The notes under the pieces were generated by a model. That model had not been told where the DNA came from. It saw only the letters and a list, made by a program, of their open reading frames with translations, and did no database searches. The translations under genes were made by a program, and so were the position numbers. DNA of 64,000 bases from a phage: sequence record PZ154897.1. One strand, given 5' to 3'. Shown in pieces: positions 40,709 through 49,412 of this stretch (position 1 is the stretch's first letter; each line of letters begins with the position of its first letter).

Positions 40709-41125
40709 TTAAATGTAAATATTTTTGCCGTAATACTTGTACCAGTGTGGCTTCATTAAAATTTTTTCATCGAGTCGTTGTTGACTCAACCTAATAGCTG
40801 ATTTGCATGGATTATAATCATTTTTCCATTCTACTGGAATATCACTGATGTCAGGAACTTCAGTATCTTTTATACTAAACCCGCGTTTTAAGCATTCCGT
40901 TATAATGTCTGATTGACGCTTTCGCAAAAATTCTAACTTATCGTAAAAGAACGTAACATGACCAGAACCTAAAATAAACTCGGAAGATATTTTAAAATCT
41001 TTAACTCGTTTACCATTTGCCACGTGTTTACGAATTATACCAAAAACACGTGGCAATTCACGGTATTCTGCGATTAAATGCTGATCAGCAAGTTCAGATA
41101 CTAAAGTCAAATTAATACGAGTCAT
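40709..41125 (-). CDS. denV: endonuclease V (pyrimidine-dimer DNA glycosylase) DenV
   Basis: 138 aa [29 protein letters not shown]...WYKYYGK matches T4 endo V from memory. Confidence 0.95.
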
Positions 41126-41185: not shown

Positions 41186-41716
<531 letters not shown>

Positions 41717-45038: not shown

Positions 45039-45314
45039 TTATTTCATATTATTAAAATATTCTTCTGCGATTTCGTCGTTATCATGGTAAACTTTAGAAG
45101 ACAGTTTAACATAACCTTCAGCAGTGAACATGTTAATCACAACCTTTACAGTATACCACTGACCGTCTTCATTACCCATTACTGCGTAAGTTTCAAACAT
45201 CGGATGGTCAGGACCGATAACTTTAATATCATTCACTGTACGACCGAAATCTTCTGAAACACATTTCATAAAGAAGTTGAACAGTTCGCCGTAATTATCC
45301 ATTTCATTCTCCAA
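45039..45314 (-). CDS. hypothetical small protein
   Basis: 91-aa ORF downstream of promoter cassette; start may be Met5. Confidence 0.45.
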   Translation of the reverse strand: MENEMDNYGELFNFFMKCVSEDFGRTVNDIKVIGPDHPMFETYAVMGNEDGQWYTVKVVINMFTAEGYVKLSSKVYHDNDEIAEEYFNNMK

Positions 45315-45375: not shown

Positions 45376-45506
45376 AGTTTTGTGAAAAATTTTTTTAAAA
45401 AGTTTTAGGGAATTCTAGGGTGGGAAGGGGCAATTAAAGGATAGGATAATATATTATAAAGGGTAGAAACTAAATGATGCCTAGAGAGGTCCAGAAAGGT
45501 CTAGAT

Positions 45507-45539
45507 ACCAAAAAGCCCCAACCTTTCGGTCGGGGCTAA
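45507..45539. repeat. 33-bp direct repeat, copy 1 (terminator module)
   Basis: accaaaaagccccaacctttcggtcggggctaa identical to 46050..46082. Confidence 0.8.
45514..45537 (-). terminator. rho-independent terminator downstream of the IP-like gene
   Basis: agcccc(g/a)acc stem with tttc/GAAA loop; minus-strand UUUUUGG follows. Confidence 0.6.
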
Positions 45540-45544
45540 GAATG

Positions 45545-46003
45545 TTATTTGATTTGTTTAGCAGACCAAATGCGGTCTTTAATAATTTTTTGGATGTCTT
45601 CAACATACTCTAGGTCATGAGCATGTGGATTATCTTTAAAACTATAAGCTCGCGCAAGTTTCTGGCCTTCGGTCTTAATTACCAAAAGTTCTTTAAGAAT
45701 TGCTTCATACCTAGAAATAATTCCTTTAGCAATATTTTTTTCTTGTGCTGCTTTAGGGTCAGCCTTAGGAGCAGGTTTACCAGAAGGTTTTTCGAAAGCC
45801 GCACCAGTAGCAACCAGGCTTTTCCAGGCGGTGGTAACATAGTTACCCACAAAGCCTTCAGCTCTCATATCGTCGTAGAACTTGTACCGAGATTCGTCAG
45901 AAGCATCTTTATAAGAATATTTACCAGCTTTAATAGCAGCAGTTGCTACAGCGCGAACATCTGAAGCGGATGCTTCATTTAAAAATTGAGCATATGATTT
46001 CAT
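45545..46003 (-). CDS. internal-protein-like ORF with capsid-targeting-sequence-like leader (MKSYAQFLNEA)
   Basis: 152 aa; N-terminal decapeptide resembles the T4 IP leader MKTYQEFIAE; Ala/Lys-rich; late promoter upstream; flanked by 33-bp repeats. Confidence 0.5.
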   Translation of the reverse strand: MKSYAQFLNEASASDVRAVATAAIKAGKYSYKDASDESRYKFYDDMRAEGFVGNYVTTAWKSLVATGAAFEKPSGKPAPKADPKAAQEKNIAKGIISRYEAILKELLVIKTEGQKLARAYSFKDNPHAHDLEYVEDIQKIIKDRIWSAKQIK

Positions 46004-46042
46004 CTTATTTCCTGTTTTAATTCGTGATTTAATATACTACTA

Positions 46043-46050
46043 TATTTATA
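46043..46050 (-). promoter_or_regulatory. late promoter TATAAATA
   Basis: tatttata on plus strand ~40 nt upstream of the 46003 start. Confidence 0.5.
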
Positions 46051-46082
46051 CCAAAAAGCCCCAACCTTTCGGTCGGGGCTAA
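46050..46082. repeat. 33-bp direct repeat, copy 2 (terminator module)
   Basis: identical to 45507..45539. Confidence 0.8.
46057..46080 (-). terminator. rho-independent terminator at the 3' end of the tRNA/stable-RNA transcription unit
   Basis: same hairpin as 45514..45537 followed by minus-strand U-run. Confidence 0.6.
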
Positions 46083-46084
46083 AG

Positions 46085-46397
46085 CCTTGCGGCAACCTTG
46101 TCGGGGTTCCACCTGCTAAGGCAAGTGTTTGTACGAAACGCCGGGATTCGAACCCGGTTATTAAGCAGTTGACGCTACTTAATATTTTTAAAAGGCCATA
46201 TCTCGACCATATCCGAACGTTCCGTCAAAAACGCTACTCGGCTTACGGCAAAGATATTTCCTCGAATCGATAATTCGGTGCGCCGTTTCTGCTGTGATGT
46301 AAGAGGGCATCAACAAATCATAAAGATTTATTAACGCAATTCCTTACCCAGGGAACATCAGTCCGACGACTTACCGGTAGCGACCCGGTTTCTTGTC
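46085..46397 (-). ncRNA. stable small-RNA region (candidate rnaC/rnaD-like RNAs); boundaries unresolved
   Basis: ~310-bp non-coding, relatively GC-rich tract downstream of tRNA-Arg with a T-arm-like CCGGGTTCGAATCCCGG element. Confidence 0.35.
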
Positions 46398-46474
<77 letters not shown>

Positions 46475-46477
46475 TAA

Positions 46478-47143
46478 TTAAAATTTCATTTTTCGACCTT
46501 TAAACCATCCTTCTGGAATTGGGTCAGTTTTCTTAATACGTTTAGAAACTTTTTCATCTAATGAATGAATCCACATCATACCAAATTGGGAATTCTTTTC
46601 GCCCTGTTGGTGTTTATTTCTGGCGTGAGATTCTTTCATTTTATTAATAGTTTCAGGAGTATGGGTCTTACCCAAGAAAGATTTAATATTTAAAAATTTC
46701 TCTCTATACTTAGGATTATCCCAAAGCTGTTTAAACCTTTCTGAACCCATTTTACGATATTTTTCTTTAAGGTCTGGGTCGTTCTCAAATCTGGTTTTAA
46801 AAGCAGCAGCCCCTTTTAAGGAAGCTTCTTTCTTTTTATCCAAATATTCTTTAGTGTTTAAATGGTCCCAACCACCTTCACCACCTAATTTCAAATTATA
46901 AACATCAGGGCGCTTTAAAAACTCTTCAGTCACAATATTCTTTTCTGACTCAAACATAGAGGTTTTATCGTCAAAGAACTCTAATATTTCTTTAGAGAAA
47001 TTTTCTATACCATACTTGTCTTGGGCTCTTTTTAATAATTTACCAGAACCCATATATCCATCATCTAAATTTTCGGTAGAATGAGCGCCTATATAGATTT
47101 TATTATTAATTTTATTTGTTATTTTATAAGTGTAATGGAACAT
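46478..47143 (-). CDS. segB: GIY-YIG homing endonuclease in the tRNA cluster (segB-like)
   Basis: 221 aa; YTYKITNKINNKIYIGAHST...YNLKLGGEGG; paralog of 17840..18670; sits between tRNA subclusters as T4 segB does. Confidence 0.8.
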   Translation of the reverse strand: MFHYTYKITNKINNKIYIGAHSTENLDDGYMGSGKLLKRAQDKYGIENFSKEILEFFDDKTSMFESEKNIVTEEFLKRPDVYNLKLGGEGGWDHLNTKEYLDKKKEASLKGAAAFKTRFENDPDLKEKYRKMGSERFKQLWDNPKYREKFLNIKSFLGKTHTPETINKMKESHARNKHQQGEKNSQFGMMWIHSLDEKVSKRIKKTDPIPEGWFKGRKMKF

Positions 47144-48714: not shown

Positions 48715-48737
48715 TTTATTCTCCTCAGTAATTGATA

Positions 48738-48772
48738 GGGTAATAGTATCACACTACTACCCAGAAGTAAAC
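48738..48772 (-). promoter_or_regulatory. early-type promoter, cassette copy 1 of 3 (TGATACTATTACC)
   Basis: minus-strand GTTTAC (48767-48772) and TGATACTATTACCC (48738-48751). Confidence 0.5.
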
Positions 48773-48775
48773 AAC

Positions 48776-49000
48776 TTATTCCGCTCCAGCAGCTTTCAAA
48801 AGCTTTTTAAGATTAACAGTGCCACGAGCAGAAAACGTGACTTTACCATCCTTTTCACTAATAGAGCCAGTTAACTTAGAAAGTTTATCGCTAGGAATTT
48901 TTTTAAAATCACTTAATGTACCATCAAAAGTTTTCGTAACAATTGGTAGTTCATCTTCATGTCTTTTAGCTTCATTGATAAATTCTTGATATGTTTTCAT
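48776..49000 (-). CDS. internal-protein-like ORF with capsid-targeting leader MKTYQEFINEA
   Basis: 74 aa from Met5 of the ORF-track product; leader matches the T4 IP consensus MKTYQEFIAE. Confidence 0.55.
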   Translation of the reverse strand: MKTYQEFINEAKRHEDELPIVTKTFDGTLSDFKKIPSDKLSKLTGSISEKDGKVTFSARGTVNLKKLLKAAGAE

Positions 49001-49030
49001 TTTGATTTCCATTTAGTTTTGTTTTGATAG

Positions 49031-49064
49031 GGTAATAGTATCACAACTAAACCACCGTGTAAAC
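49031..49064 (-). promoter_or_regulatory. early-type promoter, cassette copy 2 of 3
   Basis: minus-strand GTTTAC (49059-49064) and TGATACTATTACC (49031-49043). Confidence 0.5.
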
Positions 49065-49067
49065 AAT

Positions 49068-49340
49068 TTATTTTAAATAAATTGCATATTTTTTATAACC
49101 AGCCGTCTCGTGACGCAGACCTTTTTCATTAGCAAAGCGTTCAATATTATTAATTTGATTCTGATCAAGTTCTGAAATATCAAATACAAAAAAGTTTCGT
49201 TTATTTCCTAACGTTACATGATTCGTCAAATCAATGTTATAAAGATGATTTATATTATCAATCATAGTCTTAACAGATTTGCTAATTTTTACTTCTTCAT
49301 TAAGAGCAGATTCAACGATAAACTCTTTGAAAGTTTTCAT
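49068..49340 (-). CDS. internal-protein-like ORF with capsid-targeting leader MKTFKEFIVE
   Basis: 90-aa ORF; N-terminus fits the IP leader pattern. Confidence 0.5.
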   Translation of the reverse strand: MKTFKEFIVESALNEEVKISKSVKTMIDNINHLYNIDLTNHVTLGNKRNFFVFDISELDQNQINNIERFANEKGLRHETAGYKKYAIYLK

Positions 49341-49366
49341 TTTATTTTCCTAATTAATTTTGATGA

Positions 49367-49400
49367 GGTAATAGTATCACAACTAAAACCCCGTGTAAAC
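49367..49400 (-). promoter_or_regulatory. early-type promoter, cassette copy 3 of 3
   Basis: minus-strand GTTTAC (49395-49400) and TGATACTATTACC (49367-49379); shared upstream TTTTCACAAAGTTGTTTAC. Confidence 0.5.
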
Positions 49401-49412
49401 AACTTTGTGAAA

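Follow-up and report, generated by a model that had tools for sequence, protein, structure and literature searches.

The window analyzed here is the whole stretch of 64,000 nucleotides (nt) taken from phage sequence record PZ154897.1, and it is Tequatrovirus DNA. Between its homologs of the small-RNA gene rnaC and of gene e.8 lies a 152-amino-acid (aa) open reading frame (ORF), referred to below as gene A, which is preceded by a late-type promoter motif and flanked on both sides by the same hairpin sequence. Taken together, the results are probably best explained by a doubling of the rnaC terminator around an accessory late unit, which is gained and lost via the repeats and which encodes a probable internal protein.

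The minus strand is the transcribed strand throughout this region, and the gene order along it is that of T4: seven tRNAs (47756–47185), segB, tRNA-Arg, rnaD, rnaC, the right copy of the hairpin, the gene A unit, the left copy, a promoter, and then e.8, e.7, e.6 and e.5. The features of the locus, in the direction of transcription, are as follows.

46478–47143, minus strand: ORF of the segB homing endonuclease gene, with segB annotated at the same position in T4, T6 and e11/2
46398–46474, minus strand: tRNA-Arg (UCU), between segB and the rnaD homolog
46277–46393, minus strand: rnaD (species 2 RNA) homolog, 111 of 116 nt identical to the annotated T4 rnaD
46132–46270, minus strand: rnaC (species 1 RNA) homolog, 136 of 139 nt identical to the annotated T4 rnaC; the upstream neighbor, with a predicted end at the right repeat copy
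46048–46082, minus strand: right repeat copy, putative terminator closing the tRNA/rnaD/rnaC unit, stem at 46080–46057, about 50 nt past the rnaC homolog
46043–46050, minus strand: T4-type late promoter motif TATAAATA, sharing 3 nt with the right repeat, with 47 nt from its 5' end to the ATG
46010–46013, minus strand: Shine–Dalgarno sequence AGGA, 6 nt before the ATG, read from the sequence
45545–46003, minus strand: gene A, the 152-aa ORF of the ORF list, family phrog_2280, with the leader MKSYAQFLNE↓A (arrow, predicted cleavage site), whose first 10 codons are at 46003–45974
45505–45539, minus strand: left repeat copy, putative terminator of the gene A transcript, stem at 45537–45514, 7 nt past the stop codon
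45346–45374, minus strand: e.8 early promoter, sigma-70-like (TTTACA-17-TACTAT), about 130 nt past the left repeat
45039–45302, minus strand: e.8 homolog, the downstream neighbor, 259 of 264 nt identical to T4 e.8

Two Copies of One Hairpin Around a Late-Type Gene

The original prediction, made from the letters alone, described two identical 33-nt copies of ACCAAAAAGCCCCAACCTTTCGGTCGGGGCTAA as terminators that, together with a late promoter, bracket a leader-bearing gene. The copies are indeed identical, with 0 mismatches between 45507–45539 and 46050–46082, and the layout of terminator, late promoter, gene and terminator around the 152-aa ORF was accurately described. The exact direct repeat extends 2 nt further, to a 35-mer, ATACCAAAAAGCCCCAACCTTTCGGTCGGGGCTAA (ATACC...CTAA), with a start-to-start spacing of 543 nt. 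No third copy of the 33-mer was found anywhere in the window at up to 3 mismatches, and it had 0 matches in 100 dinucleotide-preserving shuffles.

On the minus strand, the fold of either copy is AGCCCCGACC-GAAA-GGTTGGGGCT with TTTTGGTAT behind it, which gives a 10-base-pair (bp) stem with 7 GC pairs, a GAAA (GNRA) tetraloop, and the U-tract UUUUUGGUAU directly 3' of the stem. In the terminator scan and RNA folding, the energies were −20.3 kcal/mol for the left copy and −22.1 kcal/mol for the right copy (z about −3.8 relative to shuffles). By their fit to the consensus, both copies are strong predicted intrinsic terminators on the minus strand, as originally claimed, and the T4 record X03016 labels the site "pot. 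stem-loop structure; pot. terminator". T4, T6 and PST have the right copy only, and, because the minus-strand gene order matches that of T4, this copy would be the one that closes the tRNA/small-RNA unit. An Rfam search of the window matched the tRNAs alone, leaving rnaC, rnaD and the hairpin unassigned to any family.

We infer late-promoter activity from the motif TATAAATA. We dissected the rnaC-to-e.8 interval in 15 loci of related phages and read the surroundings of gene A in 21 distinct loci. The sequence (T)ATAAATA was kept at the promoter position in all 21 distinct relatives read, amid variable surrounding sequence, and the ACAGGAAATAAG-ATG stretch in front of the gene is also conserved. 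The e.8 early promoter on the far side of the unit is conserved in every Tequatrovirus relative examined.

The hairpin was also seen outside these phages. An unrelated 5-kilobase (kb) viral contig (L006; IMG/VR 3300032282_001984) carries the exact 28-nt hairpin core at 5–76, with a 3-mismatch tandem copy 17 nt later.

Exact Presence and Absence of the Unit in Relatives

A 1.9-kb query spanning the site matched 782 phage records at 80–99% identity. The record counts given here and below were not de-replicated and include duplicates and laboratory strains, and so they are not counts of independent lineages. In T4, a single 35-mer lies between rnaC and e.8 and the gene is absent. In a four-way alignment, T4 and T6 differ from the window by one 543-column gap with its edges inside the repeat, the flanks being otherwise collinear, and PST has the same arrangement as T4 and T6, with one terminator copy, no gene, and the window sequence minus 543 bp. 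The check proposed with the original prediction, namely a search for relatives that lack precisely the inter-repeat unit, thus gave a positive result.

The two states were then counted with separate queries. For the empty site, we used the 115-nt T6 junction (40 nt, the repeat, and 40 nt) and set the E-value so that no interrupted junction could pass. It was found in 77 phage records, including T2, T4, T6, PST, RB3/5/6/9/10/55/59, ACG-C40 and Sf24. The inter-repeat segment carrying gene A was found in 471 records at 72–98% nucleotide identity, once per record. Gene A is therefore variable among close relatives, being absent from T2, T4, T6 and PST and present in these 471 records. IMG/VR scans contributed 5 and 8 loci only. 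Across the 21 distinct loci that were read, two of which come from distant Tevenvirinae lineages, gene A is single-copy and at the same locus.

The unit had also been called a portable cassette. Gain or loss at this one site is supported; the records gave no sign that the unit moves to other loci. PST IpIV was considered as a relocated gene A: it occupies the ipII position and has the length of gene A in most relatives (157 aa), but the two proteins are unrelated save for the shared leader motif.

Array States at the rnaC/e.8 Junction

The relatives carry more than two states. In state 0, the terminator stands alone. State A is that of the window, e11/2, SP21535, Maryam, teqsoen and G8. In state A+B (KRT47, Phaginator, UFV13 and ZN18-like phages), the second terminator copy is followed by gene B, which encodes 187–188 aa starting with MKTYAEFLTE↓A and ends in a different hairpin, the tail of which (TTTTTGGCATCTAGG in KRT47) rejoins the T4-type flank. 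Gene B was found in 165 records at 90–100% identity. State A+C, seen in GRNsp7 and several Mosigvirus-type genomes, consists of gene A, an unrelated terminator, a gene of 184 aa (phrog_2143) and a further hairpin, one of the CCGAAAGGTTGGG family. In all four states (0, A, A+B and A+C), the junctions lie at terminator-family hairpins.

Could gene A also be lost from the A+B arrangement? The junction predicted for such a deletion (rnaC, one terminator, gene B) was built in silico as a 111-mer and searched at the same stringent cut-off. It was found in 36 records, 13 of them at ≥99% identity (Shfl2, IME340, WL-3, P922 and others) and RB69 at 94.6%. Reading Shfl2 verified the order rnaC, terminator, gene B, hairpin, e.8, so that the absence of gene A is seen in a second context. 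With states 0, A, A+B and B-only all found, every combination of A and B is thus represented, and the junctions at the repeat are base-exact.

In RB69 (L031), the gene B region at 1659–2221 is annotated as two overlapping ORFs, ORF149c and ORF148c, which suggests a frameshifted or decaying copy of gene B in the B-only arrangement.

Genes A and B each match phrog_2280 over their full length. A clear paralogy of the two was tried as a description and dropped, since direct comparison shows only the leader and a C-terminal helix to be shared: pairwise BLASTP aligned the leader alone, and hhalign gave a 36% probability over the C-terminal helix. They are probably distant paralogs and may descend from an old tandem pair.

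Variation Between the Copies and the Direction of Change

In the relatives, the two terminator copies differ by 0–3 nt. A 2-nt stem variant that keeps the pairing (GACC to AGCC) affects the upstream copy of two phages (three loci, with two on one contig) and the downstream copy of others, and the Mosigvirus Shf125875 has a mismatch-creating TTCC variant in both copies. The presence of AGCC in either copy and of TTCC in both is a hint of exchange between the copies. Strict concerted evolution of the copies found only partial support, as many genomes differ by 1–3 nt and the copies of one locus, L025, are unlike.

On the rnaC side, the T4 flank is 3.2–3.9% divergent from occupied genomes and 5.2–5.8% divergent from T6 and PST. 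The T4 flank is thus nearer to the occupied genomes, which would place empty sites on at least two flank backgrounds; given the free recombination among these phages, this is suggestive only. Since homologs of gene A lie at the same locus in distant lineages, the gene appears to be old at this site, and the empty state of T2, T4 and T6 is most simply read as a loss.

Comparison of the window with SP21535 (L009) gave a further observation. The two are identical over the rnaC flank and the 5' two-thirds of gene A, with about 8 differences in the last 140 nt of the gene (45545–45690) and 3 in the left terminator copy. This pattern indicates a probable recombination breakpoint inside gene A.

The Gene A Protein

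The gene A product matches phrog_2280 at 1e-53, is 77–98% identical across Tequatrovirus and Mosigvirus, and had no match in Pfam. Its AlphaFold model is all-alpha with a predicted local distance difference test score (pLDDT) of 74. A hidden Markov model search for the family among 1.8 billion representatives returned only 12 proteins.

The original prediction had called the ORF leader-bearing and similar to internal proteins, and, at the sequence level, a leader of the capsid-targeting type is present. In the alignment, MKSYAQFLNE↓A fits the pattern M-K-(T/S)-(Y/F)-x-(E/Q)-F-(I/L)-x-E↓(A/S) of T4 IPI and of PST IpIII, IpIV, IpV and IpVI. A six-frame translation of the 64-kb window contains the strict motif three times, always at the start of an ORF, the other two being in the ipI locus; 200 shuffles gave 0 matches. 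The predicted prohead-protease site, a hydrophobic residue, any residue and Glu followed by a small residue, is L-N-E↓A at residues 8–11. The 152-aa form of gene A is that of the window and SP21535.

Most relatives (L002, L010 and others) have a 157-aa gene A with a 5-aa insertion, AVLNE or VVLNE, directly after the leader. This insertion duplicates VLNE↓A and thereby creates a second potential protease site.

Remote homologs at 26–50% identity retain a leader-like N-terminus ending in hydrophobic-x-E. Two of them, P0013 and P0021, whose contigs were read, are at the same locus in a Karamvirus-like lineage and in an unplaced T4-like lineage of the Tevenvirinae: each follows the tRNA/small-RNA region, is flanked by two terminators and precedes an early promoter. 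The most likely products of gene A, and of gene B in the relatives, are capsid-packaged, protease-processed internal proteins that would be injected with the DNA. By analogy with Ip1–3, the gene A protein would be an anti-defense factor.

Two distant T4-like contigs, L026 (665–745) and L029 (2392–2465), share a conserved segment of about 50 nt, ATTCGTGG.TTT.CCTGAGCC..AGGTGCGCG..GG.CGAATATG, with an ATTCG/CGAAT inverted repeat. This segment, which may be a structured RNA or a regulatory site, separates the upstream terminator from the gene A homolog's late-promoter-like ATAAATA; the window lacks it.

Neighboring and Other Leader-Bearing Genes

In the window, denV (40709–41125) adjoins the lysozyme gene e (41186–41680) across a 60-nt gap, and the ipII and ipIII genes that intervene in T4 are absent. 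The leader-bearing genes of the window are therefore gene A and two genes at the ipI locus (48730–49405). The first of these (49340–49068) encodes 90 aa starting with MKTFKEFIVE↓S, and the second (49000–48776) encodes 74 aa starting with MKTYQEFINE↓A. A 48-nt sigma-70-like promoter repeat stands before both genes and before the next one, in three copies that are 73–90% identical, so that the ipI locus of the window is a promoter-bracketed counterpart of the terminator-bracketed gene A unit.

The window's tRNA-Arg (UCU) gave no local nucleotide alignment with the T4 tRNA-Arg, despite 96–98% identity in the adjacent rnaC and rnaD; it appears to be a different allele or a replacement. The segB gene, 400 bp from the cassette, could drive co-conversion of the region. 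A convergent single-nucleotide polymorphism has been described in rnaD of a T4-like phage evolved on ECOR34, at a site "between two hypothetical genes" (PMC12685909, 2025). One of these two may be the gene A homolog, in which case a functional link between the small RNAs and the cassette is possible.

How the Unit May Be Gained and Lost

The reading that we favor is that the 35-nt rnaC terminator is present twice because a late accessory unit sits between rnaC and e.8. This unit would comprise the late promoter TATAAATA, the Shine–Dalgarno sequence, the 152-aa gene and its own terminator. The right copy would stop the tRNA/small-RNA transcript, and the left copy would stop the late transcript of gene A before the early promoter of e.8. 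With a terminator on each side, the unit would be transcriptionally insulated, so that its presence or absence would leave the neighbors undisturbed. Unequal homologous recombination or copy-choice slippage between the copies would remove one copy and the gene (543 bp) and so generate the T2/T4/T6 arrangement. For the reverse direction, an excised circle might re-integrate at a single terminator, or mixed infection might bring the gene back, presumably more often, through a double crossover in the conserved flanks. The same junction logic would yield 0, 1 or 2 genes at the site (states 0, A, A+B, B-only and A+C), and the copy-number states of this small tandem array would then be swapped among co-infecting phages via the conserved flanks. 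We infer the recombination, and gain as opposed to loss, from the positions of the junctions in the compared sequences.

Several observations weigh against this reading. The comparative pattern would be equally well accounted for by one or a few old events spread by recombination in the flanks or by SegB co-conversion. The motif TATAAATA is not enriched in the window (13 observed vs. 11.6 expected), so support for the promoter comes from its position and conservation. Gene A was found at no second locus in the 471 records; hence, with PST IpIV being unrelated, nothing points to gain through circle integration or to transfer from one locus to another. The unlike copies of L025 mean that homogenization is not general. 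An unrelated terminator follows gene A in GRNsp7-type and some Mosigvirus genomes, and the two flanking hairpins are unlike in the distant lineages; the unit can thus exist without the repeat. As for the protein, comparison of the model with PDB folds gave no match at E ≤ 0.001, and no database source gives gene A an informative name, every one of them having "hypothetical protein".

These last two results, together with the Pfam search, would suit a different product, a late accessory protein whose N-terminus merely resembles a capsid-targeting leader and which is neither packaged nor injected. Gene A likewise has no homology to Ip1–3 outside the leader, and no proteomic evidence for its packaging was found. 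On the other hand, known internal proteins also lack mutual homology beyond the leader, and the strict motif is confined to gene A and the two ipI-locus genes in the window, with none in the shuffles. The leader ending in hydrophobic-x-E persists in homologs below 50% identity, and the late-promoter motif upstream is conserved. We therefore regard a product that stays out of the capsid as rather unlikely.

The main alternative leaves the repeats passive. Each terminator would be kept for its own transcript, and one or a few ancient events would have been redistributed through the e.8 and rnaC flanks, possibly boosted by SegB. The flanks, 90–97% identical across hundreds of phages, offer ample homology for such exchange, segB is nearby, and the breakpoint within gene A between the window and SP21535 would mean that flank and intragenic recombination does happen. 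Gene A is also syntenic in the two distant-lineage contigs read, which lack identical hairpins. Against this static duplication stand the indel edges, which fall exactly in the repeat in two contexts (0 vs. A and B-only vs. A+B) and so imply at least two separate events that used it; the empty sites, which occur on at least two flank backgrounds; and the 2-nt stem variant, which is found in either copy. We consider it unlikely that the repeats play no continuing part.

By comparison, a transposon-like or site-specific element inserted into the terminator with a 35-bp target-site duplication is very improbable and was rejected. An insert flanked by direct repeats, with a single copy at empty sites, is what such an element would leave, but the 508-nt insert encodes the 152-aa alpha-helical protein only, with no transposase, integrase or terminal inverted repeats found in it, gene A was not found elsewhere in the 471 records, neighboring cassettes use other hairpins, and 35 bp is far above the typical length of a target duplication. 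An assembly artifact or a chance repeat, which has only its general possibility in its favor, can be dismissed given the 0 matches in 100 shuffles and a two-copy architecture in 21 distinct related loci, mostly from separately sequenced genomes.

Implications

Repeat-bounded gain and loss thus remains our preferred account of the locus, and as a mechanism it is not new, as stem-loop recombination is the accepted account of gene shuffling in the plastic regions of T4-type phages with internal-protein genes as the textbook case of units that vary in this way. What may be modestly new is a third locus for internal proteins, unannotated and missing from the classical T-even phages, although Repoila 1994 may already mention it. 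In its full form the idea is tentative and somewhat less likely than not: rnaC/e.8 would be a third Ip locus with up to two phrog_2280 leader genes, A and B, whose products would be packaged, cleaved and injected as anti-defense proteins (e.g., inhibitors of GmrSD-type or other nucleases). Such a locus would have escaped notice because T2, T4 and T6 all have the empty site. The repeats would make it a copy-number-variable array (0, A, B and A+B) from which phages could quickly shed, or regain, individual factors.

Ip1, Ip2 and Ip3 are specific inhibitors of different GmrSD restriction enzymes (PMC12373910), and genes A and B are therefore reasonable candidates for new anti-defense proteins. 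They represent two unannotated leader-bearing families of candidate injected proteins that are present in most wild Tequatrovirus and Mosigvirus genomes and not in T2, T4 and T6, and they are relevant to how therapeutic T4-like phages differ in host range. Furthermore, states 0, A, A+B and B-only have all been sequenced, which makes the locus a very clean natural example; because all predicted states are base-exact, it is also a convenient system in which to measure recombination between 35-nt repeats.

Comparison with Known Systems

The closest known systems are the promoter-early stem-loops (PeSLs) of T4-type phages, which flank variable ORFs and at which recombination deletes ORFs and forms mini-circles (Arbiol et al. 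2010, PMC2839356; Comeau et al. 2014, PMC4122927). These mini-circles are detectable at about 1 in 1e5 virions, and less than 50 bp of homology suffices for the T4 recombination system (PMC2839356, PMC4122927). As with PeSLs, a repeated element with a GC-rich terminator stem-loop flanks non-essential ORFs in a plastic region, the indels of close relatives cross over in the element (here in states 0, A, A+B, B-only and A+C), and the ORF would be transcriptionally insulated, with recombination proposed between neighboring copies and an excised circle possible. Unlike the PeSL, which is a composite of a terminator and a sigma-70-like early promoter, the element repeated here is the terminator alone. 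Its right copy abuts the late-type TATAAATA, and the sigma-70-like promoter nearest to its left copy is about 130 nt away, outside the repeat. The stem is also the rnaC terminator sequence rather than the PeSL consensus given for PST and T4. A bare terminator beside a late promoter is, therefore, not a canonical PeSL.

The SegB homing endonuclease was reportedly shown by Brok-Volchanskaya et al. in 2008 (among the references of PMC4122927) to drive the inheritance of the T4 tRNA region. This is the same neighborhood, and such inheritance could spread a cassette state linked to segB; it accounts for the spread of a state and not for the repeat-bounded indel.

The polymorphism of internal-protein loci in T-even phages (Repoila et al. 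1994, as cited in PMC4122927 and PMC12373910) offers a second parallel. As far as those citing papers describe it, it likewise concerns small non-essential genes that share an N-terminal packaging leader, vary in number and kind between close relatives, and behave as independent units. The internal proteins of T4 are encoded at two loci, ipI and ipII-ipIII (PMC12373910). The rnaC/e.8 junction is distinct from both, its brackets are terminators and not promoters, and its gene family, phrog_2280, is nowhere annotated as an internal protein.

Finally, the locus can be set beside deletions between short direct repeats through T4 recombination or replication slippage (Singer et al. 1982 and Albertini et al. 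1982, cited in PMC2839356 and PMC4122927). A perfect 35-nt direct repeat at 543-nt spacing, with relatives that carry the exact deletion product, resembles those cases as the citing papers present them. Unlike a one-off mutation, the presence/absence polymorphism at rnaC/e.8 behaves as a stable one, and its repeat is apparently functional. Because selection would maintain the repeat, the substrate for recombination would persist.

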